This document shows, one piece after another, positions 1-60,025 of a stretch of DNA of 64,000 nucleotides. The stretch covers positions 12,635-76,634 of the forward strand of contig CAJOHJ010000011.1 in assembly GCA_905234265.1 (NCBI GenBank). The letters are read 5' to 3'. The stretch is from an uncultured Prevotella sp. GTDB lineage: Bacteria; Bacteroidota; Bacteroidia; Bacteroidales; Bacteroidaceae. Position 1 is the first letter of the stretch. Every line of letters begins with the position of its first letter. The notes beneath the pieces were generated by a model that saw only the letters and a program-made list of their open reading frames with translations, was not told where the DNA came from and made no database searches. Both the position numbers and the translations under genes were made by a program.

Positions 1-91
1 ACATGCAGAGATAATTTTTTATCTTACGGAGATAATTTCGTAAGTCATTGAGATAATTTCGTAACACGCAGAGATAATTCCGCAATATGAC
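1..91 (+). repeat. 21-bp-phased repeat array, copy A (4 units of GAGATAATTYCGTAAC + 5 nt); left side cut by window edge
   Basis: Units at 8-28, 29-49, 50-70 and 71-91 each begin GAGATAAT. Positions 1-76 match 30711-30786 at 74/76 positions (hand count). Confidence 0.85.
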
Positions 92-103
92 TGCAGGGCA
101 GGC

Positions 104-292
104 TTATTCCTCGCCCTGCAGTTTTTTTATCTCTGTTTCTGCAGCTGTCAGCCGGTCTTTGCAGAGCTTTATCAGCTGCTGGGCTTTTTTCAGCTGCTCG
201 GCCAGCTGGTCGATGTCGTATTCGTTGGCTTCCATCTTGCTGACGATGGTCTCAAGTTCGCGGAGGGCGTCTTCGTATTTCTTCTGTTCCAT
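104..292 (-). CDS. xseB: Exodeoxyribonuclease VII small subunit
   Basis: 62-aa helical ORF (MEQKKYEDALRELETIVSKME...IDQL...) typical of XseB, directly downstream of xseA. Confidence 0.85.
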   Translation of the reverse strand: MEQKKYEDALRELETIVSKMEANEYDIDQLAEQLKKAQQLIKLCKDRLTAAETEIKKLQGEE

Positions 293-12070: not shown

Positions 12071-12206
12071 CGAAATTGTCTGTGTGAGTTACGGAATTAT
12101 CTGTGTGAGTTACGGAATTATCTCTGTGAGATAAAAAATTATCTCTGCATGTTACGGAATTATCTTACGAAGATAATTTTTTTTCTCTGCATGTTATTTT
12201 CGCGAC
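12071..12206 (-). repeat. 21-bp-phased repeat array, copy B (6 units, complement orientation GTTACGGAATTATCTC)
   Basis: Units at 12081, 12102 (identical to the first), 12123, 12144, 12165 and 12186. It fills the convergent rodA/gldH gap. Confidence 0.9.
12158..12184 (+). terminator. Terminator-like hairpin inside repeat copy B (for rodA)
   Basis: AATTATCTT-ACG-AAGATAATT followed by T6. The stem is AT-rich and therefore weak. Confidence 0.45.
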
Positions 12207-12682: not shown

Positions 12683-13850
12683 CCCTGTGCGGTCGTTTCT
12701 TTGGAGCTGCCTGCTGTGGGGCGTTGCCTTCGGCACGTCTCGGCTCGTGGGCGCCTTCGGGCCTGCGTCTCTTCTTCTTGCGCTTTGACTTGTCGAAGCG
12801 GTTGATGTTCTCCTGCGTAGCCAGGTCGATGGGCCTGTCGTCGGCAGGCTGTCCGTTGCCGTCGCTGAGCGTCGGCGGTTTCTCGCCGCGGCGGTTCATG
12901 TCTATTATCTCCTTGGCTCTTTCGGCACTGATGGTCTCCAGGTTGGCAGCCATGTTCTTGTCGGTGGAGTAGGTGAGTGTGCCGGCCAGGATGTCGCTCT
13001 TGAAATGGAAGTAGTCGGCGTCGAGCGTCTGCAGCACGATGTCGCGCTGTGGCAGCTTGCGGCCGGCCTCGATGTAGTCGTCGACCTCATAGTTCAGGCA
13101 GCACTTCAGCTTGGCGCACATGCCGGCGAGTTTCTGAGGGTTGAGGGAAATGTCCTGGAAGCGGGCGGCGGCAGTGCCTACGCTGACGAAGTTCTTCATC
13201 CACGTGGCACAGCACAGTTCGCGGCCGCATGGGCCGGTGCCGCCGATGAGGCCGGCTTCCTGACGGGCGCCGATCTGCTTCATCTCTATGCGGACATGGA
13301 ACGTGGCCGCCAGGTCCTTGATGAGCTGGCGGAAGTCTACACGCTCGTCGGCAATATAGTAGAAGATGGCCTTGTTGCAGTCGCCCTGATACTCCACGTC
13401 GCCAATCTTCATCTTCAGTCCGAGGTTCTTGGCAATCTGGCGGCTTTCTATCATCGTGTCGTGCTCACGGCTCTTGGCCTCGCGGTATTTGTCCATGTCC
13501 GTCTGACGGGCAATGCGGTAGACGCGCCTGATGTCGTCGGCACTCTTCAGGTTGGCCTTCTTCATCTGCAGCAGTGCAAGGCGGCCGGTGAGGGTCACTA
13601 CGCCGATGTCGTGGCCGGGGTTGGCTTCGACGGCAACGATGTCGCCCTTCTGGAGAGGCAGGTTGTTGACATTGTGATAGTATCCCTTGCGGGTGTGCTT
13701 GAACTGCACTTCCACGAGGTCGGTGGTGTCGGTGTTGCCAGGCACGTCGGCAAGCCAGTCGTAGGTGTGCAGCTGGCGGTCCTGACGGCCGATGGCCTGC
13801 TTGCAGAGGCCGCGGTCGCAGCCAGTCTTTATTTCGTAGTCTTTAGTCAT
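12666..13850 (-). CDS. PSP1 domain protein (RicT/YaaT-like) with basic C-terminal tail
   Basis: Cys-rich PSP1 region GPCGRELCCATWMKNF...CAKLKCCLNYE. The tail reads KSKRKKKRRRPEG... Confidence 0.85.
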   Translation of the reverse strand: MTKDYEIKTGCDRGLCKQAIGRQDRQLHTYDWLADVPGNTDTTDLVEVQFKHTRKGYYHNVNNLPLQKGDIVAVEANPGHDIGVVTLTGRLALLQMKKANLKSADDIRRVYRIARQTDMDKYREAKSREHDTMIESRQIAKNLGLKMKIGDVEYQGDCNKAIFYYIADERVDFRQLIKDLAATFHVRIEMKQIGARQEAGLIGGTGPCGRELCCATWMKNFVSVGTAAARFQDISLNPQKLAGMCAKLKCCLNYEVDDYIEAGRKLPQRDIVLQTLDADYFHFKSDILAGTLTYSTDKNMAANLETISAERAKEIIDMNRRGEKPPTLSDGNGQPADDRPIDLATQENINRFDKSKRKKKRRRPEGAHEPRRAEGNAPQQAAPKKRPHRDAPQQ

Positions 13851-13967
13851 AATGCCTTTTGTGGGGTGTTATGGGATGTTGTGGGTTTTATGGGGTTTTG
13901 TTGGGGATGTTATGGGGTTGATGGGGTTGTTATGGGGTTTGTTGGGTTTGGGGGCGTTCTGGGGATG
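13851..13967 (-). repeat. 117-nt holB-PSP1 spacer, G-free on the sense strand, with AACCCCAT repeats
   Basis: Plus-strand ATGGGGTT occurs at 13890, 13912, 13921 and 13932, plus variants. There is no C on the plus strand from about 13857 to 13954. Confidence 0.85.
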
Positions 13968-15581: not shown

Positions 15582-15989
15582 TTATTTGCTACTTGTGGTA
15601 ATATGTTGCTTGATTTTGTCAATAAGCATGCGAGTCGGCGATAACTTCTGCATAACCTCTTCCTGCTGGATATCTATGGAACAGTTGTAGTCTCCGTCCT
15701 CACGCAGACTTTGCAGTTGCGAGTAAAGACGGCCCTCTTCAGAAGTGAAAATACCGGTTTTCACATAGAAGAGGCTGAATTTGCTGACTGCGCCACGATG
15801 TGTTCCAACGTCATGCTTGTCATTAATCAACAAAGCGCTTACAGCATGGAAGAGAGCATAGTACAAACGGTTTGCAGCCATGCTCCACAAGCCGTTTTTT
15901 AGCACAACGTCCATCTCGACTAACGTCTTGTCAGTCTTTTCCAATTCCAGTGCGACAATAACGCGCCTATCTTCTTCTCTAAGACTCAT
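15582..15989 (-). CDS. HEPN domain protein (putative toxin of an MNT-HEPN pair)
   Basis: Helical HEPN pattern NRLYYALFHAVSALL...LREDGDY. Overlaps the upstream MNT gene by 11 nt if it starts at MSLREED. Confidence 0.7.
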   Translation of the reverse strand: MSLREEDRRVIVALELEKTDKTLVEMDVVLKNGLWSMAANRLYYALFHAVSALLINDKHDVGTHRGAVSKFSLFYVKTGIFTSEEGRLYSQLQSLREDGDYNCSIDIQQEEVMQKLSPTRMLIDKIKQHITTSSK

Positions 15990-16302
15990 ATAGGATTTTT
16001 TTGTCTTCTTCAACGTTGTAATAGAACAGACTGTGTGGACCGTTGAACCATTGCTCCTTTGTGAAACTGCGGGCGCTTATGCTTTCGTTCATCGCCCATC
16101 CAGCCTCAATGAAAGGCCACGCATAGTTGTCCCAGTCAGAAAGCTCGCGTTGCGGCTTGTTCAGCAGGATAAGCAAGTCCCAGTCGGAATCTTCATTCCA
16201 GTCACCTCGCGCACGTGAGCCATATAGGTAGAGAGTGCTGCCCTTTGGCAACACTTTGGCGGCTACGGCCTTGATGCTCTCAATAACTTGTGCCTGTTCC
16301 AT
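15979..16302 (-). CDS. Minimal nucleotidyltransferase (MNT, putative antitoxin)
   Basis: LYGSRARGDWNEDSDWDLLIL is the GSxxxG...DxD polymerase-beta nucleotidyltransferase signature. Confidence 0.85.
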   Translation of the reverse strand: MEQAQVIESIKAVAAKVLPKGSTLYLYGSRARGDWNEDSDWDLLILLNKPQRELSDWDNYAWPFIEAGWAMNESISARSFTKEQWFNGPHSLFYYNVEEDKKILYES

Positions 16303-20566: not shown

Positions 20567-21946
20567 ATGACCGCTTACAAGAGAAGACAGACCATCACGG
20601 TGCATGTGGGCGACACCACCATTGGCAGCAGCAGCCCGATACGCATCCAGTCGATGGGTACCGTAGACACCAACGACACTGAGGGCTGTGTGGCACAGGC
20701 AAAGAGAATCATCGATGCCGGCGGCGAGCTGGTGCGCTTCACCACGCAGGGTACCCGCGAGGCTGAGAACATGAAGAACATCTCCAGGCACCTGAAGGCC
20801 GACGGATACAACCAGCCATTAGTGGCCGACGTGCATTTCACGGCACACGTGGCCGACGTGGCGGCGCAGTACTGCGAGAAGGTGCGCATCAACCCCGGCA
20901 ACTATGTAGACCCAGGCCGCACGTTCAAGCATCTGGAGTATACCGACGAGGAGTACGCTGCCGAGCTGCAGAAGATAGAGCAGAAGCTCGTCCCCTTTAT
21001 TAATATATGTAAGGAGCATCACACCGCTGTCCGCATAGGCGTCAACCACGGCTCGCTCAGCGACCGCATCATGTCGCGCTACGGCGACACGCCGGCCGGC
21101 ATCGTGGAGAGCTGCATGGAGTTCCTGCGCATCTTCCGCCGCGAGCAGTTCGACGACGTCGTCATCAGCATCAAGGCGTCGAACACCGTCGTCATGGTGA
21201 CTACCGTCCGCCTGCTCGTAGAGACCATGGACCGCGAGGACATGCACTATCCGCTGCACCTCGGCGTCACCGAGGCCGGCGAGGGCGAAGACGGGCGCAT
21301 CAAGTCGGCAGTGGGCATCGGCGCACTGCTGACGGAAGGCATCGGCGACACCATACGCGTGTCGCTCTCCGAAGAGCCGGAGTGCGAAATTCCCGTGGCC
21401 AGGAAGCTGGTGGAGCTTATTCCCGAATGCACCGCTCTGCGCCAGAAGGCCGAGGCCGGCATTAAGGACGACACCATCACGCTCGACATCGACGCCCCCG
21501 ACTGGGAGACCCTGCAGCTGAAGGCTGCCATGGCCGTGGGCGCACTGCTGATAGACCGCAAGGCCACGAAGCTGGAAATCAACACCCAACACCCATCACC
21601 CAACACCCAACACCTGGCAGACGCCATACTGCAGGCGGCGCGCATCAAGTTCACCAAGACGGAATACATCTCATGCCCCGGCTGCGGTCGCACGCTCTAC
21701 AACCTGCAAGACACCATCCGCCGCATAAAGGCCGCCACCAGCGACCTCGTGGGGCTGAAGATAGGCATCATGGGCTGCATTGTCAACGGCCCGGGCGAAA
21801 TGGCCGATGCCGACTATGGATATGTGGGTGCAGGCCGTGGCAAGATTTCGCTCTACCGACAGAAGGAGTGCGTGGCAAAGAATATCCCCGAGGAGGAAGC
21901 CGTCGACCGCCTGCTGGAACTCATCCGCCAGTGCGAGGGAAAATAG
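20567..21946 (+). CDS. ispG: 4-hydroxy-3-methylbut-2-enyl diphosphate synthase
   Basis: TIM-barrel part (IRIQSM, RINPGN) and the Fe-S part (ISCPGCGRT, GCIVNGPGE), joined by an insert of about 90 aa. Confidence 0.9.
   Translation: MTAYKRRQTITVHVGDTTIGSSSPIRIQSMGTVDTNDTEGCVAQAKRIIDAGGELVRFTTQGTREAENMKNISRHLKADGYNQPLVADVHFTAHVADVAAQYCEKVRINPGNYVDPGRTFKHLEYTDEEYAAELQKIEQKLVPFINICKEHHTAVRIGVNHGSLSDRIMSRYGDTPAGIVESCMEFLRIFRREQFDDVVISIKASNTVVMVTTVRLLVETMDREDMHYPLHLGVTEAGEGEDGRIKSAVGIGALLTEGIGDTIRVSLSEEPECEIPVARKLVELIPECTALRQKAEAGIKDDTITLDIDAPDWETLQLKAAMAVGALLIDRKATKLEINTQHPSPNTQHLADAILQAARIKFTKTEYISCPGCGRTLYNLQDTIRRIKAATSDLVGLKIGIMGCIVNGPGEMADADYGYVGAGRGKISLYRQKECVAKNIPEEEAVDRLLELIRQCEGK
21581..21615 (+). 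repeat. 7-bp microsatellite (AACACCC)x5 inside the ispG coding sequence
   Basis: AACACCC AACACCC ATCACCC AACACCC AACACCT, which encodes NTQHPSPNTQH. Confidence 0.95.
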
Positions 21947-21950
21947 GTCG

Positions 21951-22086
21951 CTGAATTATCTCTGCGAGTTACGGAATTATCTCTGTGAGTTACGAAATTA
22001 TCTTACGGAGATAATTTTTTATCTCTGCATGTTACAAAAATATCTCTCAGAGATAACTGTCAGTCTCTGGGAGATATTCCATTTAC
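21951..22086 (-). repeat. 21-bp-phased repeat array, copy C (6 units, progressively degenerate)
   Basis: Units at 21961, 21982, 22003, 22024, 22045 and 22066, between the convergent ispG and lysozyme-like genes. Confidence 0.85.
21995..22020 (+). terminator. Terminator-like hairpin inside repeat copy C (for ispG)
   Basis: AAATTATCT-TACGG-AGATAATTT followed by TTT. The stem is AT-rich. Confidence 0.4.
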
Positions 22087-22107: not shown

Positions 22108-22557
22108 TCACTTCATGCGCCTCATGACACGTTCATAGTACTTCTGCGTAGCACGCTTCGAGTAGTTCATGCCACCATTCCATGAGCGGATGGCCTGCTC
22201 TACATTGTTGTGCGGATTGTAGAACGACTGGTACAACAGAAACATTTCCTTCGATTTGTCAGGGCTGAAACGGTCGTCCATTGTGTAGCGTCTGCTGCTT
22301 CCACGCAGCTTGAGTATGCGGTTGCACTCTTTCACGAGTATCGGCGTTATCTGCATGATGCCACACGATTTTCCGCTCTTGTCAACAGCTCTTGCATTGC
22401 CTTCGCTCTCTACGGATATGATTGCATTGATCACCGGAGTCCAGTCGAATGCAGAGCGTTCAGTCTTCTTGTTTTCCTTCGTCCCGGCAAAGACATTTGT
22501 GGGGGCAAAGGCTGCCATTATGCCTATCAGGCATACTGTCTTGATAATGGTTTTCAT
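22108..22557 (-). CDS. Lysozyme-like / lytic transglycosylase domain protein, secreted
   Basis: Signal peptide MKTIIKTVCLIGIMAAFA and SVESEGNARAV...GIMQI, resembling the SLT catalytic Glu motif. A -7 box inside the longer ORF supports the shorter start. Confidence 0.6.
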   Translation of the reverse strand: MKTIIKTVCLIGIMAAFAPTNVFAGTKENKKTERSAFDWTPVINAIISVESEGNARAVDKSGKSCGIMQITPILVKECNRILKLRGSSRRYTMDDRFSPDKSKEMFLLYQSFYNPHNNVEQAIRSWNGGMNYSKRATQKYYERVMRRMK

Positions 22558-22628
22558 AGGGTTATCCTTTTCGAAGCACAGCCGTCTCACCACGAGACAT
22601 TCAGTCGCCATGCTATTGTTATCGCGCA

Positions 22629-22636
22629 CAAAGGTA
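22629..22636 (-). promoter_or_regulatory. -7 box TACCTTTG for the lysozyme-like gene
   Basis: Plus strand CAAAGGTA lies about 72 nt upstream of the ATG at 22557. Confidence 0.4.
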
Positions 22637-22862
22637 AGCACTATTTTATTTACTGCCAAAGGTTTCTGCATTTTATAACATTGATTACCAATTAATTAAC
22701 ATAAGTCAAGAGCGGATTTAACTATTTTTGTGATTTTACTTTTCACTCTTCCGGCAGTCTTAATAACAGAAAGCGATGCAGAAAAACAATGAGCTCACAA
22801 GATGAATGTATCGGAAAGCGAACAAAAATCAGATTATTAACTCTAACACACAAACAATACCT

Positions 22863-24296: not shown

Positions 24297-25427
24297 CTAA
24301 TGTCTCTGCCGGCGGACGCTGACACGGCTGCCTGAACTGGACGACGAACTTGAGCGCTTGGTGCGCTTGGCGCGTGCTGCCGGCTGTTCGGCAGGCTGGG
24401 CTGCCTCCTGGCTCTCGCCTTGTGCTGCTTCAGCCTGCTTCTTGGCTTTCTTGGCCTTGCGGGCCTCCTTCTTGCTCTGCGGCTGCGCAATGCTGTCGGT
24501 GCGGATGGTGTCCCTGCGCTTGGCCTGCCCGAAGAGGTTGTGCTCAAAGGCGCGCAGCTCCTCCTCTATGCGCAGCTGCTCCTTGCGGAGGGCTGAGTCG
24601 GTAGGGCAGTATTGTGCCAGAGTGCGCCCGAGCATGTTGTTGGTCTTGTAGATCTTGCCTTCGTAGCGGTTCAGCGTGAAGAAGTCTTCCATAGACATCG
24701 TGGCGGCGTTGTTAAGGTTCGACGTCATCACCGTCTGGCGGCTGAGATACGGCTCCAAGTCGCTGTATCTGACCCAGAAAAGCGGATATTTGGAAGCCTC
24801 ACCGCCGAAGTCGTCCTCGCGGAGCATTACCGGACAGAGGGCAAGCACCTTCCGGCGGAACGAAGAGTTGGCCTGGTCGTAGTAGGCCGACTCCTTGAGG
24901 TAGTAGAGCTTCACCTCGGCAGAGGGGATGTCGCTGTTGTCGACGCGCACCTTGCCGTTCCGCTCCTCATAGAAGATGTGGTAGTTGTCAAGTATGGTCT
25001 TCATCTTCACCTTGGCGGAGTCGTTGAAGACTTCATTGCCGTCGAGACGGTATTCGTAGACGGGAATGTAGCCGTTCAGCGCCAGCTTGAAGATATAGGT
25101 GAAGAGGTTCAGCTGCTTGTCGATGGGTTCCACGGGATAGTAAAGGCCGGCGTTGCTGTCCTGATTGAGGTCTATCTCACGGTAGATGTCGCGGCGCCAC
25201 ACCACGTCCTCGGGCATGTCCAGTGCGGTGGGGAACATCAGACGCGCACGCATGGTGACGCCTTGGTTTTGCGCCTGCTGCTGTGCCTGTTGCGCCTGCT
25301 GCTGGCGACGGGCTTTAGGCTGTGCCACGGCTGATGCTGAAAAGATAAAGAGCAGGAGAAAAAGCCCACCCAAGCCTTCCCAAAGGGAGGGATGTCTGTT
25401 TACCTGTTTTCGCAGTGTCATATCCAT
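24297..25427 (-). CDS. gldN: T9SS ring protein GldN/PorN
   Basis: WRRDIYREIDL...NLFTYIFKLALNGYIPVYEY matches the GldN family. It is the last gene of the porPKLMN order. Confidence 0.85.
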   Translation of the reverse strand: MDMTLRKQVNRHPSLWEGLGGLFLLLFIFSASAVAQPKARRQQQAQQAQQQAQNQGVTMRARLMFPTALDMPEDVVWRRDIYREIDLNQDSNAGLYYPVEPIDKQLNLFTYIFKLALNGYIPVYEYRLDGNEVFNDSAKVKMKTILDNYHIFYEERNGKVRVDNSDIPSAEVKLYYLKESAYYDQANSSFRRKVLALCPVMLREDDFGGEASKYPLFWVRYSDLEPYLSRQTVMTSNLNNAATMSMEDFFTLNRYEGKIYKTNNMLGRTLAQYCPTDSALRKEQLRIEEELRAFEHNLFGQAKRRDTIRTDSIAQPQSKKEARKAKKAKKQAEAAQGESQEAAQPAEQPAARAKRTKRSSSSSSSGSRVSVRRQRH

Positions 25428-25517
25428 TTTTGTATTTTGTCTTAATTATTTCGCATTATAAGTAAATGTCATTTCCAACATTCCTCCCTTGGGGAGGGCT
25501 TGGGTGGGCTTCACTCT

Positions 25518-28069: not shown

Positions 28070-29590
28070 CTATTTTTTCTTTCCCTTCTTCACCTTCACC
28101 TTGTCGCTGGTGGTGTTTGCCACCGAGCGTACGCAGCGGAAGCCGATGTATGAGCGCGGCTGGTTCTGGTATTCGAAGGTGCGCCACGCAGAGCGTATGT
28201 AGTTTTCCGGGTCTTTCCAGGAGCCTCCGCGCACGCTCTTCTTCTTCAGGCGGTAAGGGTCTTCCAGGGCTGCGTTGTAGCCGAGCTGCGGGTTGAGGTC
28301 GTTCATCGACTCTACGCCAGCCTCGGTGTAGACTGTCGACGTCCATTCGGCCACGTTGCCGGCCATGTCGTAGAGTCCGTTGCTGTTGGCCTGGTAGATG
28401 CCTGTGCGGCTGGTTATGAGGTTGCCGTCCTTGGTGTAGTTGCCCTCGGCAGGCTTGAAGTTGGCGTAGAAGCATCCGGCCTCGCTCGACGTGTCGCCGT
28501 TGTCCCATGGGAATTCGTTCTGGTCGCGTCCGCGTGCTGCATATTCCCACTCGGCCTCTGTCGGCAGGCGGTAGCGCTGCACGTAGCGTGCTGCCGAGCC
28601 GAGGCCTCGCAGCAAGTATTCCGTGCGCCAGAAGCAGAAGGCATTGGCCTGCTCCCAGGTGACGCCGACTACGGGATAGTCGTTGTAGGCTGCGCTGCTG
28701 AAGTAGTAGCGCATGTAAGTCTCGTTGTTGGCGTTGGGGAAGTCGTTGATCCAGCACGTGGTGTCTGGGTACACATTAATAATATATGTGTTCAGGAAGT
28801 CGTACGGGCCGGTATACTGGCGGTTGATGGTCTCGCGCTTGATGTTGCCCTCGTCGTCGATGTAGGCCGTGTCCTTGGAAATCCATATTTCCTCATTGGG
28901 ATTGGGGCGCACGTCGGTGTTCAGTATTCTTTCTGCCGGATTCGTGCGGTATCTGCGCTTGGCAGCCTCTACGTAGTCATAGACCTCGTAGCGGTAGTTC
29001 ATCTGCCGCCAGTCTAACATGCGGTCGCCTGTGACGGGGTTGGTCACGTAGACGCTCTCGATGGCGCGCTGCTCATCCTCGTTGGGCTTGCGCGGGATGG
29101 GCTTCTTCCAGTTGAGCCGTGGGGTGATGGGGTCGCCGTTCTTGTCTTCCTCAATCTTGTACGACTCGTCGCCGCCGTAGGCCGGGTCGGCCAGACGCTC
29201 GCGGACAATGCTGTCGCGAACGTAGTTGACGAACTGGCGGTACATGGAGTTGGTGACTTCGCGCTCGTCCATCCAGAATCCCTCAACGCTGATGTCGCGC
29301 ACCGGAGTCTGACGGCCCCAGAGTGTGTCGCGCTGGTCGACGCCCATGCGCAGGTGTCCGCGCTTGATGAGCGTCATGCCGTATGGCGCAGGCTCGGCAA
29401 TGGCCCTGCCGCTGACTCCCGTCACCTCGCCTCCCGACGACGAAACTACCTTGCCGCCGAAGCAGGAGGCCAACAGTAAGATGAGAAATGCAGAAAACGA
29501 GAAGACGAGAAGTGCCTTTCGCAGTTCTCTCACCTCAGTTCTCTTTCCCATTCTTATTTCAGTCTTTGTCTTCATATCTTGATTTCTCAT
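28070..29590 (-). CDS. gldK: T9SS lipoprotein GldK/PorK (FGE-sulfatase fold)
   Basis: Lipobox LLASC, and the FGE-like motifs VTWEQANAFC, YRLPTEAEWEYAARG and RGGSW. Confidence 0.9.
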   Translation of the reverse strand: MRNQDMKTKTEIRMGKRTEVRELRKALLVFSFSAFLILLLASCFGGKVVSSSGGEVTGVSGRAIAEPAPYGMTLIKRGHLRMGVDQRDTLWGRQTPVRDISVEGFWMDEREVTNSMYRQFVNYVRDSIVRERLADPAYGGDESYKIEEDKNGDPITPRLNWKKPIPRKPNEDEQRAIESVYVTNPVTGDRMLDWRQMNYRYEVYDYVEAAKRRYRTNPAERILNTDVRPNPNEEIWISKDTAYIDDEGNIKRETINRQYTGPYDFLNTYIINVYPDTTCWINDFPNANNETYMRYYFSSAAYNDYPVVGVTWEQANAFCFWRTEYLLRGLGSAARYVQRYRLPTEAEWEYAARGRDQNEFPWDNGDTSSEAGCFYANFKPAEGNYTKDGNLITSRTGIYQANSNGLYDMAGNVAEWTSTVYTEAGVESMNDLNPQLGYNAALEDPYRLKKKSVRGGSWKDPENYIRSAWRTFEYQNQPRSYIGFRCVRSVANTTSDKVKVKKGKKK

Positions 29591-29632
29591 TATCTCAATC
29601 TCTCATTATCTCATTTTCTCAATCTCTCAATC
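29591..29632 (-). repeat. C-free (sense strand) purine-rich repeat spacer between porP and gldK
   Basis: The 42-nt plus strand contains no G (TATCTCAATCTCTCATTATCTCATTTTCTCAATCTCTCAATC) and shows 8/16-bp periodicity. Confidence 0.9.
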
Positions 29633-30571
29633 TCAAAGTATCCTCACGCTCTGGTGCCTGTTGCGTCCTTTCTTGGCAAAGTTGATTTCCGTCTGGTATC
29701 CCACGAACAGCTCGTGGCTGCCGTTGCCGAAGCTCAGTGCCGACGTGTAGTACTCGTAGCTGTAGCCCAGCATTACTCCGTGGAACAGTCCGCCCAGATA
29801 TGCCGTCAGCGAGTTCGTGGGGCTATATCCCACACCTACGTACATCACCTTGTTGTCGTGAGTGTATTTCAGTCGTCCCGTGATGTCGGCTCGCCATACT
29901 GTACCGTCGTAGCGTCCGAACACTGAGGGGTGTATTGTTAAAAACGGATTTCTCAGCTTTATATTGTATCCGCCGGTAAAATAATAAACGCGGCTGATGT
30001 CGAGGATAGAGCGGTCGCCAAGTTCTATTTCGGGGGCAGTGAGGTGGAGAGCCGAGAGAGCTGCATACCAGTTGCCGTGAGTGTAGTAGAGGCCTGCCGA
30101 CACGTCGGCTGCGGTGCCGTTTTCGTCGCTTTTGGTGAAGGCTGGGTCCTCGCCCTTCTCCAGATCCAGCGAGCTGCCCTTGAACTTCTCGCTCATCAGT
30201 CCGCCCTGTATGCCTATGCTCAGCGTGCCTCCGAAGAGCTTCTGCTTGTAGGCGTATTGCAGCGAGAACCGCTGGTGCGACAGCAGGCCTATCTCGTCGT
30301 TCAGCAGCTGGAGTCCGATGCCGTGCCTGGCGTTGAGGAACTGCAGCGGCATGTCGCCGGCAACGTACATGGTGCGCGGATTGTTCTCGAAGCCCACCAT
30401 CGTCATGTTGTAGGCTCCTGCTACGTTTATCTTCTGCTCCTTGCCTGCCGCTGCAGGGTTGAACGACGGCTCCATGGCCCAGTAGTGGCTGAACGACGGC
30501 TCCTGCTGGGCGAAGGCCGTCGCGACAGACAGCCACACATTAATTAATATATATAATAGGCGCTTGCTCAA
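29633..30571 (-). CDS. porP: PorP/SprF family T9SS outer-membrane protein
   Basis: QQEPSFSHYWAMEPSFNPAAAG...NVAGAYN is the PorP/SprF N-terminal signature. It is the first gene of the por operon. Confidence 0.85.
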   Translation of the reverse strand: MSKRLLYILINVWLSVATAFAQQEPSFSHYWAMEPSFNPAAAGKEQKINVAGAYNMTMVGFENNPRTMYVAGDMPLQFLNARHGIGLQLLNDEIGLLSHQRFSLQYAYKQKLFGGTLSIGIQGGLMSEKFKGSSLDLEKGEDPAFTKSDENGTAADVSAGLYYTHGNWYAALSALHLTAPEIELGDRSILDISRVYYFTGGYNIKLRNPFLTIHPSVFGRYDGTVWRADITGRLKYTHDNKVMYVGVGYSPTNSLTAYLGGLFHGVMLGYSYEYYTSALSFGNGSHELFVGYQTEINFAKKGRNRHQSVRIL

Positions 30572-30665: not shown

Positions 30666-30801
30666 TTCTGTGTGTGAGTTACGGAATTATCTTACGGAGA
30701 TAATTCCGTAACATGCAGAGATAATTTTTTATCTTACGGAGATAATTTCGTAAGTCATTGAGATGATTTCATAACACGCAGAGATATGGTTTTATTTGAA
30801 A
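30666..30801. repeat. 21-bp-phased repeat array, copy D (orientation flips; MITE-like inverted ends)
   Basis: Complement-type unit at 30671-30691, then forward units at 30697, 30718, 30739, 30760 and 30781. There is a perfect 15-bp-stem hairpin at 30678-30712. Confidence 0.9.
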
Positions 30802-30954: not shown

Positions 30955-33897
30955 ATGAAAAAATTCATTTTCTGTATCTCTCTTGTCCTGACAGGAGTGA
31001 TGACCTCTTGCGTCGATAAGTACGAAGAGGTGGATGCAGACTCTAAGCCTTCGTGGCTTGGCGAAAGCATTTATGCGGAATTGAAGAACGCCAACCAGAG
31101 CCGGTTGACGGGAACATTCACGAATTACGTGAGGCTGATTGACGACTTGGGCTACGCCGAGACGCTGAGCCGCACAGGTTCGAAGACTATTTTCCCGGCA
31201 AACGACGAGGCGTTTGCGCGCTTCTTTGCCAACAACGACTGGGGAGTGAGCAGCTACGAGCAGCTCTCGGAGTCGCAGAAGAAACTGCTGCTCTACTCGT
31301 CGATGCTCGACAATGCCCTGCTGCTGGGCATGCTGCCAAACGTGAGCAACGGCACCTCGGAGCCTATGAAGAATGCTGCCGTGAAGCACCAGACGAACGT
31401 CAGCGTCATCGACTCCGTGCAGTTCGTGCCACAGGGCGACCCTGACGAGTTCATGCCTAAGGGCAACACCTATTGGGACAAGTACCGCAACCGCCAAGGC
31501 GGCATGTACCTCGTCAGCGACAATACACGCCCGATGCTCGTCCACCTCACCCGCGAATACATGCTGGGCAAGGACATCTCCGTGCGTGGCGACGAGAGCG
31601 ACTTCTCCATCCTCACCGGCTCTCCCTATGCCGACGGCAATGCATACGTCTTCAACGTGGGCATACAGAAGAATGCCGAGACTGGCCGCTACAACAGCGA
31701 CATCACCTGCCAGAACGGCTACATACACCAGATGGAGGACGTCATCGTACCTCCGGGCAACCTGGCGCAGGTTCTCCGCAAGCATGAAAAGACAAAGTAC
31801 TTCAGCCGCATCATGGACCACTACGCAATGCCGTACTATGATGCCAACACTACCCGAAACTACAACGACTGGGCCGTTGCCAACAACAAGCCAAGGATAG
31901 ACTCCATTTTCCAGATACGCTATCCGAGCTTTATTTCGCAGGGAGGCAACACGTTGAAGACCCTGCCTGACGGCACCAGCATCAACGACATAGCAAACTG
32001 GCCTAATTTTGACATCGGCTGGAACCAGTACTATCCAGGCACCACGGGAACCATCGATGCTACCATTCAGGATATGGGTGCATTCTTCGTTCCCAACGAT
32101 CAGGTGGTTGAGGACTATTTCCTGCCGGGTGGCGGCGGCGCAGCATATGTCGACATCTACGGCAGCCTGCGCACTGGCAGCGTCATCAACGACCAGGCCC
32201 ACCTTATGGAAAACCTTGACTCTATCCACAAGAAGGAGCCGGGCATTCTTGCCAAGTTCGTCAACAACCTGCTGCAGTCGAACTTCTCTGCTTCAGTGCC
32301 GTCAAAGTTCCCCAACATGACTAACGACACTGGTGAGGCTCTCGGACTGACAACAGGCATCATCAACCGAAAGGACGACGGCAAGTACGACATCACCATT
32401 GCCAATAACGGCGTGTTGTACGTCATCAACGAGATGATTGTGCCTGACGAGTTCAACTCCGTCATTGGCCCGGTGGCTACGTATCCTCAGATGAGTGCCG
32501 TGAAATGGCTGACGAAAGACTGGAAGGGCAACGACCCTCTGAATATGGACTTCCACTTCTTGCTGATGGCCATGAGTGCAAACTATGCATTCTTCATCCC
32601 CGACAATCAGGCATTCGACTATTACTACCTTGACCCGGCATCGCTTGGCCACGTGGATACTTATGGCGAACCGGCCCCAGAAGTGCTTCACTTCTATATC
32701 GACACTCTTGCAACGACGGCAGAGAAGCCTCTGAAGTGCATGCGCTACAAGTATGACTTCAAGACAGGAGTCCTGGACGAAGCGTCAAGGACGGAAGCTT
32801 CCATCGGAACAGTGACGTCGCAGCTGACAGACATTCTGAACTATCACACCGTGGTGCTGTCCGAGGGACAGACTATCGGCACCCGTCACTATTACAAGAC
32901 CAAGCATGGAGGCACCATATATGTCAGCGGCAGCAATGCCACAGGCACGAAGGTGGAAGGTGGCCTGCAGAAAGACCTGGTATTCTACAACAGCTCGGCT
33001 AACCAAGACGAGGGAGAGGCTATAGGACTCGATGCGGACTTCTTCGCATCTCCTGTCATCACTAACCTCTGGGAAGAGAAGAACGGCTATGCTTACCAGA
33101 TAGACCACGTTATTCAGGGACCGACGGAAAGCGTCTATGGCGTACTGAAGGGCGCAAAGGACGAAAACGGCAATCAGCTGTTCAGCGAGTTCCTTGAACT
33201 CTGCAATGGTTTCGAGAGTGCTTCCGATCAGATGGCGTGGGCCGGCATTTCGTCAAATGTCAACGAAGCCACCGGCACTTCACCACAGGATGCTTTCAAA
33301 GTGTTCACAAAAACATATAAGGTTGGCGCTACCCCAATCGACAACGCTTGTCTTGACTATAATGTGAAGATGTTCAACACTTACAACTACACGCTCTTTG
33401 CTCCCGACAACGCAGCCATGGCTATTGCCTACTCCAAGGGCCTGCCGCAATGGGAGGAAATCGACGCTATCTTCAATCAGTATAAAAACCTTGACCCTGA
33501 CCGTGAGGTTTCGCCTCAGGAGGCAGCCGACAAGGAGAAAGTCGTTGACATGCTCCGTGTGATGCGCAGCTTCATACGCTATCATTTCATGACTAATTCT
33601 GTGTATGCCGACGAGACTGTCGAGGACGGCATCTACAAGTCGATGAGTTCCAATGACGAGGGACTGGCTCTTACGCTCAGGATTTCGGGCGGTGGCAACC
33701 AGCTTAACGTTACCGACGTTGAAGGCACTACGGTGACCATCAATGCCAACGGCAGCAAAATTGCCAACAAGATGACTCGCGACTTCTGGTTCGACCAGAA
33801 CAAGGAGACTGCCAGGAGCATCACTACATCTTCGTTCTGTGCTGTCCATCAGATTTCCGTTCCTCTGATGTATAAAAGCGGAAATTTGGGATACTAA
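30955..33897 (+). CDS. Multi-fasciclin (FAS1)-like surface lipoprotein, 980 aa
   Basis: Lipobox VMTSC followed by acidic VDKYEE. Repeated FAS1-type motifs: TIFPANDEAF, NGYIHQMEDVIVP, AFFVPNDQVV, NGVLYVINEMIVP, YAFFIPDNQAF and YTLFAPDNAAM. Confidence 0.7.
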   Translation: MKKFIFCISLVLTGVMTSCVDKYEEVDADSKPSWLGESIYAELKNANQSRLTGTFTNYVRLIDDLGYAETLSRTGSKTIFPANDEAFARFFANNDWGVSSYEQLSESQKKLLLYSSMLDNALLLGMLPNVSNGTSEPMKNAAVKHQTNVSVIDSVQFVPQGDPDEFMPKGNTYWDKYRNRQGGMYLVSDNTRPMLVHLTREYMLGKDISVRGDESDFSILTGSPYADGNAYVFNVGIQKNAETGRYNSDITCQNGYIHQMEDVIVPPGNLAQVLRKHEKTKYFSRIMDHYAMPYYDANTTRNYNDWAVANNKPRIDSIFQIRYPSFISQGGNTLKTLPDGTSINDIANWPNFDIGWNQYYPGTTGTIDATIQDMGAFFVPNDQVVEDYFLPGGGGAAYVDIYGSLRTGSVINDQAHLMENLDSIHKKEPGILAKFVNNLLQSNFSASVPSKFPNMTNDTGEALGLTTGIINRKDDGKYDITIANNGVLYVINEMIVPDEFNSVIGPVATYPQMSAVKWLTKDWKGNDPLNMDFHFLLMAMSANYAFFIPDNQAFDYYYLDPASLGHVDTYGEPAPEVLHFYIDTLATTAEKPLKCMRYKYDFKTGVLDEASRTEASIGTVTSQLTDILNYHTVVLSEGQTIGTRHYYKTKHGGTIYVSGSNATGTKVEGGLQKDLVFYNSSANQDEGEAIGLDADFFASPVITNLWEEKNGYAYQIDHVIQGPTESVYGVLKGAKDENGNQLFSEFLELCNGFESASDQMAWAGISSNVNEATGTSPQDAFKVFTKTYKVGATPIDNACLDYNVKMFNTYNYTLFAPDNAAMAIAYSKGLPQWEEIDAIFNQYKNLDPDREVSPQEAADKEKVVDMLRVMRSFIRYHFMTNSVYADETVEDGIYKSMSSNDEGLALTLRISGGGNQLNVTDVEGTTVTINANGSKIANKMTRDFWFDQNKETARSITTSSFCAVHQISVPLMYKSGNLGY

Positions 33898-37426: not shown

Positions 37427-37475
37427 TCAATTGATAATTGAAAATTGACAATTTGATAATTGAAAAAGGAAAGTT

Positions 37476-41476: not shown

Positions 41477-41513
41477 CTTAATTGGGAATTGACAATTTAT
41501 AATTGATAATTGT

Positions 41514-46644: not shown

Positions 46645-48615
46645 ATGAACATGAAAAATATCATAAAGCGGGGATGGCTGTGGGTTCTTGCAGCTCTGCT
46701 TGTCGCATCCTGCTCTGACATGCTTGAGACCGACTCTACGCGTCAGAACATTGATCCGGACATCACTGCCAAGACCGACTCCGTGTTCTATTCCTTTGGC
46801 ATTCTGCAGGCTCTGCAAGAACTTGCCGACCAGTATGTTTTCCAGGGCGAGATGCGTGGCGACCTTGTTGATGTTACACGCTATTCCGACAACAACCTGC
46901 GCCAGCTGTACGACTACAGTGCTGGCACCGACAACAAGTACGACTCGGCCTACGTCTACTATCGTGTCATCAACAACTGCAACTACTACATAGCCCATTG
47001 CGACACCAACCAGTACAGCGGCTCTACCAATGTTGTCATCAACAAGTATGCCGCCACCAAGGCCATCCGTGCATGGGCTTACCTGCAGCTTGCACGCAAC
47101 TGGGGCAAGGTGCCATTCTTCACCGAGCCTCTTACTCAGATTTCCGACATCGACCGCAACTATCCGGAGCTTTCGCTTGAGGAAATCGTAGATCGTCTGG
47201 CTCCAGACTTGGAGTATTACACTGGCATGAGGACCCCGGAACTTGGCTTTAGCGGTAACAGCGCAACAGGTATCGGCAGTCCTAACTGGGAAAGCACAGC
47301 AAAGCTGATTGCTCCCTGGACATGTTTCATCCCTGTCGATGTCGTCTTGGGTGACATGTATGCAGAGGCTGGTCGCTATGGTGAGGCTGCCAAGCATTTT
47401 ATCACCTACCTTACCAAGGTGTGTCCCACGGTGAGTCCTGATGTTCTTCGCTACAGCCAGTACACAGCCCCCTTGGCGGAAGACTTTGCTAAAACTATCA
47501 GGGGAATAGAAGAGGACATTCCGAGCCGCTCTCAGATTAGTGTAACAAATGACCATCTGTCATGGTCTGGCATTTTCGGCCGCAACTCCTTAGGTGACCT
47601 TGTCTCACTCATTCCCATGGCCACCACTTCTCAGAACGGCAAGACCACCAATGTGCCTCTTGCTTTCGGCTTTAACTATTATGCCACTTCCGAGGAGCGT
47701 GAGCGCAGCACTCCCTATGTTGACGAGATACAGATTGTGCCTTCATCCATTCTCAAGCAGCTTTCAGACTCCACGGAGTACTACTACTATGCAGCCTACC
47801 AGAACCAGAGAGATCCGTATGACACTATTGCCATCTGCCGTGCTGGTGACATGCGTCTGCGCAGCATCCAGAATTATGAATATGTAATCTCCACCGACTC
47901 CCTCACTCTGTGGTATAACAAGTATAAGTATGCCAACATTCTTCTCTATCGTGTCAGCACCATCTGGCTGCGCCTGGCAGAGTGCTTCAACCGTCTCGAC
48001 ATGCCTGATGTTGCCTTTGCAATCCTGAAGGACGGCATCAACGAGTTTATGCTTCAGCGCGACGACAACGGTGAGTATACAATGCCTTACCTCAGCAACT
48101 ATAGTCGCCAGCAGCTGCAGACAGTCTATCCGCTGCTCAGCACAGAGAATCTTAACCTGTTCTCCAAGGAGAGAACCTGCGGCATTCACATTCATGGTGC
48201 AGGCCGTGCCGTGAGCAACTATCCTGGCGGCACCAGCAATCAGTCGGCAACTTACCATTCATACCTGAAGGTTCGTCTTGACGAGAATGGCGACACCGTA
48301 AAGGTTAATGACAAGCCAGTCTACGACGACCGTCACCCCTACAACTTCGACCGCATCGTCGGAAAGAAGCTTGCTGAGATTGCCAAGTATACCACTGTTG
48401 GCACTACCCGTCAGGACACCATCAATGCCATGGAAGACATCATCTGTGACGAGTATGCCCTGGAGACAGCCTTCGAGGGCAACCGCTACTTCGACCTGCT
48501 GCGCCTTGCCAAGAACAAGGACCGCGCCGGTGTCTACAGTGGCGACCAGTGGCTTACGCAGAAGCTTGGCTACAAGGGCTGGACTCCTGCCAAGAAGTAC
48601 TTACCGTTTAAATAA
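46645..48615 (+). CDS. SusD/RagB family surface lipoprotein (second copy)
   Basis: Lipobox VASC, plus RAWAYLQLARNWGKVPFF and ETAFEGNRYFDLLRL. The first ATG is taken as start; a TTG at 46636 is also possible. Confidence 0.85.
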   Translation: MNMKNIIKRGWLWVLAALLVASCSDMLETDSTRQNIDPDITAKTDSVFYSFGILQALQELADQYVFQGEMRGDLVDVTRYSDNNLRQLYDYSAGTDNKYDSAYVYYRVINNCNYYIAHCDTNQYSGSTNVVINKYAATKAIRAWAYLQLARNWGKVPFFTEPLTQISDIDRNYPELSLEEIVDRLAPDLEYYTGMRTPELGFSGNSATGIGSPNWESTAKLIAPWTCFIPVDVVLGDMYAEAGRYGEAAKHFITYLTKVCPTVSPDVLRYSQYTAPLAEDFAKTIRGIEEDIPSRSQISVTNDHLSWSGIFGRNSLGDLVSLIPMATTSQNGKTTNVPLAFGFNYYATSEERERSTPYVDEIQIVPSSILKQLSDSTEYYYYAAYQNQRDPYDTIAICRAGDMRLRSIQNYEYVISTDSLTLWYNKYKYANILLYRVSTIWLRLAECFNRLDMPDVAFAILKDGINEFMLQRDDNGEYTMPYLSNYSRQQLQTVYPLLSTENLNLFSKERTCGIHIHGAGRAVSNYPGGTSNQSATYHSYLKVRLDENGDTVKVNDKPVYDDRHPYNFDRIVGKKLAEIAKYTTVGTTRQDTINAMEDIICDEYALETAFEGNRYFDLLRLAKNKDRAGVYSGDQWLTQKLGYKGWTPAKKYLPFK

Positions 48616-48660
48616 CCTGTTCAGACAGCACCCGCTGGCAGTGTGGGTGTTACCGGTCTT

Positions 48661-51015: not shown

Positions 51016-51060
51016 GACAGTAAAATTTTCACTTTTCACATTACCCTTTACCCTTAACAC

Positions 51061-53140: not shown

Positions 53141-53158
53141 CTGAAAAAGCATCTTATT

Positions 53159-53242
53159 GAGATAATTTTATAAGTCATAGAGATAATTTCGTAACATGCA
53201 GAGATAATTTCGTAACTCGCAGAGATAATTTTGCGAATGTCT
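53159..53242 (+). repeat. 21-bp-phased repeat array, copy E (4 direct units)
   Basis: Units at 53159, 53180, 53201 and 53222. The two central units differ only in the linker (ATGCA versus TCGCA). Confidence 0.9.
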
Positions 53243-53300
53243 CAGCGGTTGCAAAAAATGGCAGACAGACAATTTTGCGTGTAAAAAAGACATTCATTTA

Positions 53301-53405: not shown

Positions 53406-53448
53406 CAGCCGAAAATTTGTGAAAATTATATTATCAAAATTATTTTTT

Positions 53449-59966: not shown

Positions 59967-59970
59967 TGGC

Positions 59971-60025
59971 TTATGTTTTTATCTCTGCATGTTACGAAAT
60001 TATCTCTGCGAGTTATTTTGAAAAG
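59971..60025 (-). repeat. 21-bp-phased repeat, copy F (2 units plus fragment)
   Basis: TCTGCATGTTACGAAATTATC (59984-60004) and TCTGCGAGTTATTTTGAAAAG (60005-60025). Confidence 0.75.

Follow-up and report, generated by a model that had tools for sequence, protein, structure and literature searches.

BrickBuilt of P. gingivalis (Klein et al. 2015) is composed of a 23-nt unit, AGACCATAGTATCCTCTCATATG, with leader and tail segments that end in IS5-type inverted repeats, GAGACCTTYGCA, and its reported range is limited to P. gingivalis and P. gulae (PMC4596501). The arrays reported here, found in a 64,000-nucleotide stretch of an uncultured Prevotella genome (the window), resemble BrickBuilt in their occurrence in Bacteroidales, their strictly intergenic location, their multiple copies, and their spacer-less tandem of short, imperfect units in variable number. 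In contrast, their unit (the brick) measures 21 nt, leader, tail and terminal inverted repeats are absent, the family spans several genera, and a fixed six-brick composite is dispersed in the window genome. The best cyclic alignment of the brick with the BrickBuilt unit scored 7, a value equalled or bettered by 111 of 300 shuffles; this similarity is not significant, and kinship in sequence was rejected. The GAGACCTTYGCA motif was absent from the ends of the copies, which share no non-repetitive flanks.

The REP, BIME and REPIN elements (PMC3184786; PMC3116915) are likewise dense intergenic mosaics of direct and inverted units with characteristic linkers, often located between convergent genes and free of target-site duplications; the REP/BIME elements of Proteobacteria bind IHF and gyrase (PMC3184786; PMC3116915). 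REP units, however, are GC-rich imperfect palindromes tied to a RAYT gene, whereas the brick is AT-rich and non-palindromic and is arranged mainly head-to-tail with an exact 21-bp period. As described in PMC3733652, REP superfamilies carry a conserved GTAG or CGTC tetranucleotide head, and neither of these heads occurs in the brick consensus TCACAGAGATAATTTCGTAAC.

MIRU (PMC3184786, PMC12548453) is a single-family dispersed minisatellite present at many intergenic or intercistronic sites, and the brick family is similar in that it occupies seven loci in the window genome and is polymorphic in unit number in Segatella copri. MIRU units are 40–100 bp long and GC-rich and contain an ORF whose translation is coupled to that of the flanking genes, whereas the window copies contain no coupled ORF and most lie outside operons. 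BOX of Streptococcus pneumoniae is also a modular intergenic repeat with variable internal tandem modules; it has terminal boxA and boxC and a 45-bp boxB (PMC3184786), whereas the bricks have no such terminal modules. Unlike CRISPR repeats, the bricks abut through a 5-nt linker at a period of 21 bp, with no unique spacers, and no cas gene was present among the approximately 50 window genes scanned.

The sites of AraC/XylS-type and LytTR-type regulators are direct repeats with a 21-bp period, a parallel that we treat as a lead only, and plasmid iterons and centromere-type arrays are comparable. The brick arrays resemble these systems in having asymmetric sites of approximately 16 nt placed head-to-tail every two helical turns, with bipartite blocks one turn apart. 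Operator and iteron arrays, however, belong to a single promoter, origin or partition locus and have their cognate gene alongside, whereas the brick arrays are scattered genome-wide in variable number, some of them between convergent genes. The original prediction had recognised no named family in the repeat, and this holds across Rfam, BrickBuilt, CRISPR, the plasmid and phage collections, and the searchable literature, in which work on the motif, on Prevotella intergenic repeats and on Bacteroidetes REP/RAYT systems contained no description of a 21-bp brick family.

The repeat unit and its copies in the window

The brick is a 21-bp unit consisting of a 16-nt core, GAGATAATTYCGTAAC, and a 5-nt linker, with the consensus given above derived from an nhmmer profile; the standard form is asymmetric. 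A scan of the window for the core with up to three mismatches gave 22 matches against 0.39 expected, a number reached by none of 100 shuffles, and all 22 lay inside six intergenic loci. Neighbouring cores on the same strand were spaced exactly 21 bp apart, and the only exceptions, of 19 and 23 bp, were found at strand flips. As an independent check, TRF assigned a period of 21 or 42 to each of the five larger loci. The nhmmer unit profile gave matches at E ≤ 1 only within the six loci and none in coding sequence, with one weaker stray at E = 6.9. The core scan, TRF and nhmmer thus confirmed the predicted dispersed family in strict 21-bp register. The copies and associated features are listed in Table 1.

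Table 1. Brick arrays and associated features in the window
Feature	Position	Strand	Composition	Setting or evidence
Copy A	1..86	+	Four bricks, cut by window start: palindromic brick, two standard bricks, terminal brick GAGATAATTCCGCAAT	3' of xseB (104-292, -)
GC-rich hairpin with T7 run	91..127	+		Directly after copy A; sequence, fold
Copy B	12071..12199	-	Six to seven bricks, cores on minus strand	Between convergent rodA (10579-12042, +) and gldH (12194-12736, -)
Copy C	21947..22078	-	Six bricks, most cores on minus strand	Between convergent ispG (20567-21946, +) and SLT-domain gene (22108-22671, -)
Inverted decayed brick pair	22039..22078	.	Hairpin with 16-bp stem	Copy C edge; MFE structure of 21947-22086
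Copy D	30666..30790	+	One inverted brick, then five direct bricks; third brick overall (second direct) of palindromic type GAGATAATTTTTTATC	383-bp divergent gap between porP (29633-30571, -) and fasciclin-domain gene (30955-33897, +); porP-porK-porL-porM-porN on minus strand, fasciclin and SusC/SusD genes on plus strand
Perfect 15-bp inverted repeat	30678..30712	.	GTTACGGAATTATCT / AGATAATTCCGTAAC, loop TACGG	Flipped first brick of copy D
Copy E	53154..53236	+	Four direct bricks, no flip	Between tandem plus-strand genes: 7TM-HD receptor (51061-53109) and OMP-like gene (53419-55011)
Copy F	59967..60013	-	Two good bricks and a decayed third	Tandem minus-strand genes; after terminator-like hairpin following RGL11-domain gene, reaching M24 peptidase ATG (59964-59966)

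The copies are approximately 50–135 bp long and AT-rich, and all seven are intergenic. The seventh lies approximately 1 kb beyond the window end, exactly at the end of an independent metagenome contig whose sequence matches the window at 100% identity, a position compatible with a repeat that interrupts assembly. The density is at least seven copies in 65 kb, or about one per 10 kb; as an independent contig ends inside one of these dense copies, the family may limit the contiguity of MAGs.

The six loci of the original prediction are real, with some corrections to their boundaries. Copy C begins at 21947 rather than 21951, one base past the ispG stop codon, and copy D starts at 30666 as proposed, but its recognisable repeat ends at approximately 30790 rather than 30801. 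Copy B overlaps the gldH stop codon (12194-12196), which sits within a brick remnant (AAAATAAC joined to ATGCA), and this had been overlooked. Likewise, copy F does contain the two good bricks proposed, but the decayed third brick, extending up to the M24 peptidase start codon, had been missed. The arrays abut or overlap stop and start codons of housekeeping genes. The gene map contains 12 intergenic gaps longer than 130 bp, five of which are occupied by copies B–F, the same count as that made from the letters. It also agrees with the predicted position of copy D between the divergent T9SS operon and fasciclin/SusCD locus, and convergent, divergent and tandem settings are all seen. Since the copies occur in all three settings, they are not simply terminators. 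The GC-rich hairpin directly after copy A looks like a plus-strand intrinsic terminator and belongs to the context outside the repeat. Copy E is preceded by an array of AGAGGTG heptamers (53102-53144) that is separate from the bricks.

Our alignments revealed that the copies share one common composite of approximately 130 bp with a six-brick architecture and are not loose arrays. Relative to copy D, copy B is 83% and copy C 77% identical over 100 nt, each on the complementary strand. Copy A is 97% identical to copy D (30711-30786) over 76 nt, although copy A lies at the window edge and its identity is therefore open to an effect of collapsed repeat assembly. The order of brick variants is identical in copies A–D, and the junction AAC-ATGCA-GAGATAA is found in all six copies. 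Internal bricks and linkers are homogenised within each array, and the array edges decay. These comparisons show a composite of about six bricks in fixed variant order that has been copied to many intergenic sites of this genome. Homology of the whole element among copies had not been noted previously.

The perfect 15-bp hairpin predicted at 30678-30712 was confirmed both in the sequence and by folding. Relative to shuffles, copy D folded with z = -7.2 and -7.0 and copy C with z = -6.9 and -5.7, while copy B was weak (z about -2) and copy E was no better than shuffles (z = -1.3 and -0.7, not significant). Strong hairpins are found in copies A, C and D, and they arise only at flipped or palindromic bricks; the arrays of other species contain direct units only. 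The hairpin was therefore rejected as a functional core, since only flipped copies fold. A long hairpin is not supported as a feature of the family and is a by-product of brick flips.

Brick number and distribution in Prevotellaceae

The motif is not confined to the window. In addition to the seventh copy, 21-bp arrays with the same core were found in S. copri (three GTDB species representatives), in Prevotella sp., in a Prevotellaceae rumen MAG and in a Bacteroidaceae MAG. Genome and metagenome collections were scanned with two exact cores required per locus. The genome-collection scan gave at least 11 loci, with five chance matches, four of them in apparent gyrB coding sequence, and 21-bp arrays were carried by 30 of 30 metagenome loci. 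The taxonomic range given here is a lower bound. In S. copri and other Prevotellaceae the arrays occupy a small number of loci, and their linkers are array-specific.

The brick number of S. copri is polymorphic in exact brick-sized steps, a variation in a related species that was absent from the original prediction. The spacer between cimA and leuB occurs in alleles of 74, 95, 116 and 137 nt (n = 18), which differ by exact 21-nt steps, and a second locus has alleles of 111, approximately 153, approximately 176 and 197 nt (n = 13). Such VNTR loci with 21-nt steps could serve strain typing. The Prevotellaceae, notably S. copri, are major members of gut and rumen communities, and their non-coding DNA has hardly been explored.

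The cimA-leuB locus also provides an empty site. Two outgroups with the same gene order, whose CimA proteins are 89% and 86% identical, have brick-free spacers of 35 and 25 bp, and filled and empty sites agree in the flanking stop codon and the AT-rich spacer. The S. copri array was thus gained in intergenic DNA, directly after the stop codon. Relatives whose IspG is approximately 89% identical have no copy within 20 kb around ispG, which suggests a patchy distribution, under thin sampling. The gene downstream of ispG is a different one in relatives (77–80% DNA identity, or approximately 89% identical IspG), so that copy C offers no clean empty-site comparison.

Ends, target sites and origin of the arrays

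Alignment and in-register display of the six copies revealed no terminal inverted repeat common to them; the edges decay into unrelated flanks, and there are no leader or tail segments common to the copies. The original prediction had described MITE-like ends. This description applies to copy D only, in which the outer bricks match each other as inverted copies at 15 of 21 positions. As to target-site duplication, no direct repeat was found around copies B, C or D, and none in the comparison of filled and empty S. copri sites. Because common ends and target-site duplications are both absent, the term "mobile" rests on the similarity of the copies and on the single empty site.

No transposase, integrase or HUH enzyme was present among the approximately 50 window genes. 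A collection of 72,556 plasmids contained no similar sequence and IMG/VR gave no matches, while a collection of 50,697 phage records gave one weak match, to an unverified "phage" scaffold with a related palindrome-type 21-bp array. On these results, an origin from phages or plasmids was dropped.

With moderate confidence, we regard the family as an apparently undescribed, brick-only, non-coding intergenic dispersed minisatellite of the general kind of BIME, MIRU or BrickBuilt, seeded by insertion and then shaped by slippage. A seed of at least one brick, or the whole composite in the window genome, would be placed into an intergenic site by a process that leaves neither terminal inverted repeats nor a target-site duplication. 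The array would then expand and contract by slipped-strand mispairing or unequal recombination, and long hairpins would be incidental products of the occasional brick inversion. The arrays may nevertheless persist through some benefit to the host. A brick-only repeat can spread without the terminal inverted repeats, target duplications and palindromic units that automatic MITE and REP finders use as hallmarks, and such families are probably under-counted.

Protein binding and other alternative readings

The conservation of the brick is uneven. Between loci, cores are 93% identical, a figure inflated by ascertainment, and linkers 16%; a comparison of 17 distinct S. copri bricks, each 21 or 22 nt long, leaves only GAGATA and C.TAAC invariant. 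The centres of the conserved blocks, GAGATA and CRTAAC, lie approximately 10.5 bp apart, which corresponds to one helical turn. Since the core is conserved across genera and the linkers are not, and since the two blocks are one turn apart in a unit repeated every two turns, we infer a sequence-specific binding protein. The predicted protein would recognise each brick and could be either a mobilising enzyme or a host factor. If such a partner exists, the two-block core offers a ready probe for its identification, and S. copri can be manipulated genetically (PMC8634118).

It is tentatively possible, though we consider it unlikely, that the arrays are host protein-binding sites, in line with the cooperative array of the original prediction. 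Each brick would be a putative operator, and the two-turn register would align all sites along a single face of the DNA, so that proteins could bind cooperatively and the arrays would act in regulation or chromosome architecture. A two-helix regulator of the AraC/XylS type, a LytTR-type regulator and a nucleoid-associated protein are the candidates. The 21-bp register is strict in every species, the contrast between core and linker points the same way, and the spacing of the two blocks persists even in 22-nt bricks. Flipped and palindromic bricks keep their AGATAA hexamers 10, 11 or 21 bp apart and hence on the same helical face, and the orientation of the core relative to transcription is variable, as a function at the DNA level predicts. 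However, the arrays show no promoter preference, being found between convergent genes, in an operon spacer and 3' of genes, and their edges decay like neutral DNA, with no candidate regulator gene nearby. Brick number also varies freely among S. copri strains and close outgroups have no array at all, which argues against an essential site. The mobile or slippage-driven repeat that we favour fits the data at least as well as a binding array.

A joint reading, which we would place among the less probable ones, is that the bricks are predicted binding sites of a DNA-binding protein conserved across Prevotellaceae, and that phased arrays would nucleate one-faced nucleoprotein filaments at gene boundaries. 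These may constitute an architectural or insulator system tuned by brick number, or they may be the substrate of an undescribed brick-wise mobilisation. In the latter version, an enzyme would cut at a fixed point in each brick, and the element would move and change size in exact 21-nt quanta, without terminal repeats or target duplications.

Mobilisation as single-stranded DNA, in the manner of REP or REPIN elements, is distinctly unlikely. It would require a single-copy HUH enzyme (RAYT or IS200/IS605 TnpA-type) whose recognition sites would be brick hairpins or a short cleavage motif, and this mechanism would account for copies that share neither terminal inverted repeats nor a target-site duplication. 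It is also in keeping with the high local density and intergenic restriction of the copies, the insertion right beside gene ends, the BIME-like mosaic in which direct and inverted units are joined by specific linkers, and the strong hairpins of copies A, C and D. However, the standard brick is non-palindromic and flip-free arrays show no folding. The AT-rich bricks have neither tetranucleotide head of the REP superfamilies (PMC3733652), and the 64-kb window contains no Y1-transposase (RAYT) gene.

A conventional MITE, that is, an internally deleted insertion sequence moved by a DDE transposase acting in trans, is a still slimmer prospect. The bricks would then be an internal minisatellite, as in BrickBuilt, or binding sites for the transposase. 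A length of approximately 130 bp (below 500 bp), AT-richness, multiple copies, a strictly intergenic location and the imperfectly inverted outer bricks of copy D (15/21) are all compatible with such an element, and BrickBuilt in P. gingivalis provides a precedent (PMC4596501). Against it stand the lack of a common terminal inverted repeat, leader or tail and of target-site duplication at copies B, C and D and at the S. copri site, the outcome of the plasmid, IMG/VR and phage searches, and the non-significant similarity to the BrickBuilt unit.

A function at the RNA level, with bricks in UTRs or operon spacers serving as terminators, stabilisers, processing sites or sites for RNA-binding proteins, is very improbable. 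Copies A and F and S. copri locus 1 do adjoin terminator-like hairpins in or beside 3' UTRs, the flipped copies fold strongly (z about -7), and transcription or effects on mRNA have been reported for BOX, REP and BrickBuilt elements (PMC3184786, PMC4596501). In contrast, Rfam 15 gave no covariance-model match at gathering thresholds, and its sole match at E ≤ 1 was an unrelated microRNA model at 55031-55072. Structure is not conserved, copy E and the direct arrays of other species having no significant or evident fold. A promoter and terminator consensus scan around copy D, based on a sigma-70 model ill-suited to Bacteroidota, found no terminator pattern in or around the copy. The core is in sense orientation at copies E and F but antisense in the cimA-leuB spacer of S. 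copri. A rule of sense orientation, suggested by copies E, F and A and S. copri locus 1, was dropped because the cimA-leuB array lies antisense inside an operon.

Finally, a 21-bp unit spans exactly seven codons, and translation into heptad repeats or short ORFs with MIRU-style coupling was considered, but although the period is divisible by three, this reading is close to refuted for the window copies: TAA occurs in two of the three sense frames of every window brick, no ORF connects the genes on either side of copy E or copy F, and most copies lie between convergent or divergent genes. At cimA-leuB in S. copri, one frame on the antisense strand of the bricks is open through the whole array into leuB with an in-frame ATG. 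Read-through from CimA was rejected, as no inspected CimA homologue extends into the array and the longer homologues are assembly duplications or N-terminal variants.

A dispersed intergenic repeat built of 21-bp bricks

The repeat is built of 21-bp units, here termed bricks, each consisting of a 16-nt core (GAGATAATTYCGTAAC) and a 5-nt linker. The window holds 22 matches to the core with up to three mismatches, a number reached in none of 100 dinucleotide-preserving shuffles (mean 0.39). Neighbouring cores on the same strand are spaced by exactly 21 bp, the only exceptions being 19 and 23 bp where a unit flips strand. Tandem Repeats Finder and nhmmer agreed with this result: matches to the unit-derived profile at E ≤ 1 were confined to six intergenic loci (copies A–F), and the coding sequence of the window gave none at that threshold, with a single weaker stray at E = 6.9. 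The six loci in exact 21-bp register described in the original prediction were thus confirmed. Its count of five occupied gaps among the twelve longer than 130 bp also held, since a GC3-based, Pfam-backed gene map gives twelve such gaps, five of them containing copies B–F. The setting assigned to copy D was likewise recovered, with the porP-porK-porL-porM-porN operon on one side and a fasciclin gene and SusC/SusD locus on the other.

Comparison of the six copies in core-sense orientation and 21-nt register revealed a common order of brick variants. An inverted or palindrome-like brick comes first and is followed by a standard brick that ends in GTAAC; the linker ATGCA then leads to a palindromic brick (GAGATAATTTTTTATC), a pair of standard bricks, and a terminal brick with a changed second half (GCAAT, GCGAC or GCGAA). 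All six copies contain the junction AAC-ATGCA-GAGATAA. Positions 1-76 of copy A, which adjoins the window edge, are 97% identical to 30711-30786 of copy D, and copies B and C are 83% and 77% complementary to copy D, respectively, over 100 nt. These similarities identify the family here as a composite of six bricks (~130 bp) that has spread by copying to several sites. Window 48170-64000 is matched at 100% identity by a contig of an independent assembly; this contig runs 1043 bp further and terminates within a seventh copy, which fits an assembly-breaking repeat; 65 kb of the source genome is covered in this way.

Repeats and other features of the window
Feature	Position (strand)	Tandem Repeats Finder (period 21 or 42)	Remarks
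Copy A	1-86 (+)	6-79	
Copy B	12071-12199 (-)	12074-12196	
Copy C	21947-22078 (-)	21953-22056	
Copy D	30666-30790 (+)	30687-30749	
Copy E	53154-53236 (+)	53159-53231	
Copy F	59967-60013 (-)		
Perfect 15-bp inverted repeat	30678-30712		In copy D
Unrelated 21-bp array	4702-4780		GAATTCTGCAAGAATGGAAAT x3.8; fills gmk/nadD gap
Unrelated 21-bp array	8143-8230		GCTAAAGGTTCACAGTTCACA x4.2, internal TTCACAG heptamer; fills mreC/mreD gap
Tandem heptamers	37429-37463		Short gap directly upstream of susD start codon
Tandem heptamers	41479-41512		Same, fasciclin gene
Tandem heptamers	6169-6214		Same, mreB
8-nt tandem array	29585-29634		GAGATTGA / GATAATGA (sense strand); porP/porK gap, reaching porK start codon
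Heptamer array	53102-53144		AGAGGTG / AGAGTTG x6; overlaps 7TM-HD receptor stop codon, directly 5' of copy E
G-rich minisatellite	13857-13950		TGGGGTTGTTA-type, G-quadruplex-like; gap between PSP1-domain gene and holB-like gene
Related G-rich stretch	293-322		Near xseB/xseA junction
34-nt inverted repeat	25362-25395 / 25478-25511		Arms 91% complementary, 82 nt apart; straddles porN/gldN start (24297-25427, minus strand) and gap after porM/gldM
HEPN-domain gene overlapping minimal nucleotidyltransferase gene	15582-16302 (-)		Resembles HEPN/MNT toxin-antitoxin pair

Distribution and array dynamics

The source organism is an uncultured member of the Prevotellaceae. Its IspG shares 86% identity with the Xylanibacter ruminicola protein, and the GC content of the window is 55%. 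A genome scan with a two-core pattern, covering one genome per species and biased by its pattern toward exact cores, found at least 11 loci. Among the matches listed, six are genuine 21-bp arrays (three species of the Segatella copri complex, a Prevotella sp., a rumen Prevotellaceae MAG and a horse Bacteroidaceae MAG) and five are chance matches, four of which lie in apparent gyrB coding sequence. A metagenome scan found at least 30 loci, and all of those listed carry exact 21-bp direct arrays. Most are two orthologous S. copri loci: locus 1, at the 3' end of a 620-aa gene just ahead of a terminator-like hairpin, and the leu spacer, between a citramalate/isopropylmalate-synthase-like gene (cimA) and leuB. 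The family therefore reaches past this window. In unrelated phyla the two-core pattern also hits apparent gyrB coding sequence (GAAGATAATTCCGTAAC...GATAATGG; L001, L002, L006 and L009), a source of false positives for later motif scans.

Relatives of the window organism with ~89% identical IspG have no copy within 20 kb and carry other intergenic arrays of their own, with units of 22 or 7 bp. The 22-bp arrays of one such relative, L045 (9097-9176 and 17624-17673; also in L046), differ in sequence from the bricks (ATTTTGGCCCAAAACGGCCTCT; TTTTGCGATAAAACGTGGACTA). Arrays with a unit of about two helical turns that are specific to one lineage thus seem common in Prevotellaceae. A phage or plasmid origin was rejected, since the family was not found in PLSDB plasmids or IMG/VR and the phage collection gave one weak, unverified match. 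This match, in an unverified "phage" scaffold from human faeces (L048, MT835724.1; 2977-3062), consists of palindrome-type 21-bp bricks (TCGGAGATAATTTCTTATCTA x4) having the GGAGATAAT half of the core in common with the family.

The leu spacer alleles of S. copri measure 74, 95, 116 and 137 nt (n = 18), differing by exact 21-nt steps, and those of locus 1 measure 111, about 153, about 176 and 197 nt (n = 13). Two outgroups with the same gene order (CimA 89% and 86% identical) have spacers of 35 and 25 bp that contain no brick, and they keep the C-terminal end of CimA with its stop codon as well as the AT-rich stretch ahead of the leuB ATG. This one empty site indicates that the S. copri lineage acquired the array at the exact boundary between the stop codon and the old spacer; no duplication is visible between the filled and empty leu sites. 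The family is thus a repeat made of bricks alone and scattered between genes, which is acquired at new sites and lengthens or shortens by whole bricks. Seeding may occur by a process that leaves neither terminal repeats nor target duplications, after which arrays would grow and shrink by slippage or unequal recombination, with homogenisation within arrays and decay at their edges.

Some S. copri leu alleles (L019, L021, L024, L025, L033 and L035) carry an additional ~140-nt element rich in GC hairpins (GCCCTGAAGGGGC, CCCAGGGTAACACCCTGGG, GCGCCCTGTAAGGGC) and unrelated to the bricks; its insertion point is precisely the array edge that faces leuB. It resembles a second, REP-like repeat family.

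Probable core recognition and relation to known repeats

Linkers are uniform within one array and vary between arrays (ATGCA or TCACA here; CTTCG, TAAGG, TGCCA and GCCGT elsewhere). Between loci, identity is 93% at core positions 2-15 and 16% in linkers, a contrast partly due to ascertainment, as exact cores were required in the scans. In a set of 17 distinct bricks from a single S. copri locus, some of 22 nt, only GAGATA and C.TAAC are fixed, and the centre and linker vary; the core thus comprises two blocks with centres about one helical turn apart. Since this 14-16-nt two-block core is kept across genera whose housekeeping DNA is unalignable, and the period is two helical turns, a sequence-specific DNA-binding protein is likely to recognise it. 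The candidates would be a mobilising enzyme, which we slightly favor, and a host factor, as the original prediction proposed.

Closest among known repeats come BrickBuilt of P. gingivalis, whose 23-nt minisatellite lies within an IS5-type MITE (PMC4596501), the REP/BIME mosaic repeats (PMC3184786), and mycobacterial MIRUs, VNTR minisatellites that are dispersed between cistrons and carry coupled ORFs (PMC3184786, PMC12548453). Each has a tested defining feature that the family does not share. Unlike MITEs, the family has no shared terminal inverted repeat or target-site duplication. The MITE-like ends suggested for copy D were not borne out as a family feature: among the window copies no common inverted repeat, flanking direct repeat, or shared leader or tail was found, and edge bricks grade by decay into flanking DNA. 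Copy C begins one base past the ispG stop codon, a brick remnant of copy B contains the gldH stop codon, and a decayed linker of copy F contains the ATG of an M24 peptidase gene. No transposase, integrase or HUH enzyme gene is present among the window genes. In contrast to REPs, the standard brick is not palindromic and lacks a GTAG or CGTC head. Its similarity to the BrickBuilt unit was equalled in 111 of 300 shuffles, and the BrickBuilt leader and tail are absent, as is the coupled ORF of MIRUs from the window copies. A full-text literature search found no description of the motif or of such intergenic repeats in Prevotella or Bacteroidales. We therefore file the family as a bacterial dispersed mosaic or minisatellite repeat for which no earlier description was found; the original prediction recognised in it no named REP, BIME, MITE or CRISPR repeat.

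Folding, coding potential and neighbouring repeats

Copies A, C and D, which contain flipped bricks, fold much more stably than shuffled sequence on either strand (z -5.7 to -7.2); the fold of copy B is marginal (z about -2), and copy E, of direct bricks only, has none (z -1.3 and -0.7). Rfam gave no match at gathering thresholds and, at E ≤ 1, just an unrelated microRNA model elsewhere in the window. Thus, the perfect hairpin predicted in copy D exists but is not conserved across the family, and it is a side product of inverted bricks. An RNA role that depends on orientation is unlikely, since the core is sense to transcription at copies E and F as well as S. copri locus 1, yet antisense within the S. 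copri leu operon. A coding role was judged unlikely: no CimA homologue inspected extends into the array, no ORF bridges the neighbours of copies E and F, and stop codons close two of the three sense frames of each window brick. One frame stays open through the S. copri leu array and continues into leuB. In one such locus (L018 6251-6305), a brick variant with CATAAC in place of CGTAAC gives rise to an opposite-strand ATG, in frame with leuB, which would add 18 residues (MKISPKVINNKTIKKSDK) if used.

Periods of 7, 14 and 21 predominate among the intergenic tandem repeats of the window. The gmk/nadD array is in frame with nadD and duplicates its start-codon region (SARMEMN x3, then SARMKRIGLFGG), giving several in-frame ATGs, and the mreC/mreD array lies within the mreBCD-pbp2-rodA operon. 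The AATTGAT-type array of the heptamers upstream of start codons is found again in another Prevotellaceae species (L047 6663-6696). The porP/porK array includes GAGATAAT, which corresponds to the brick core's first half.
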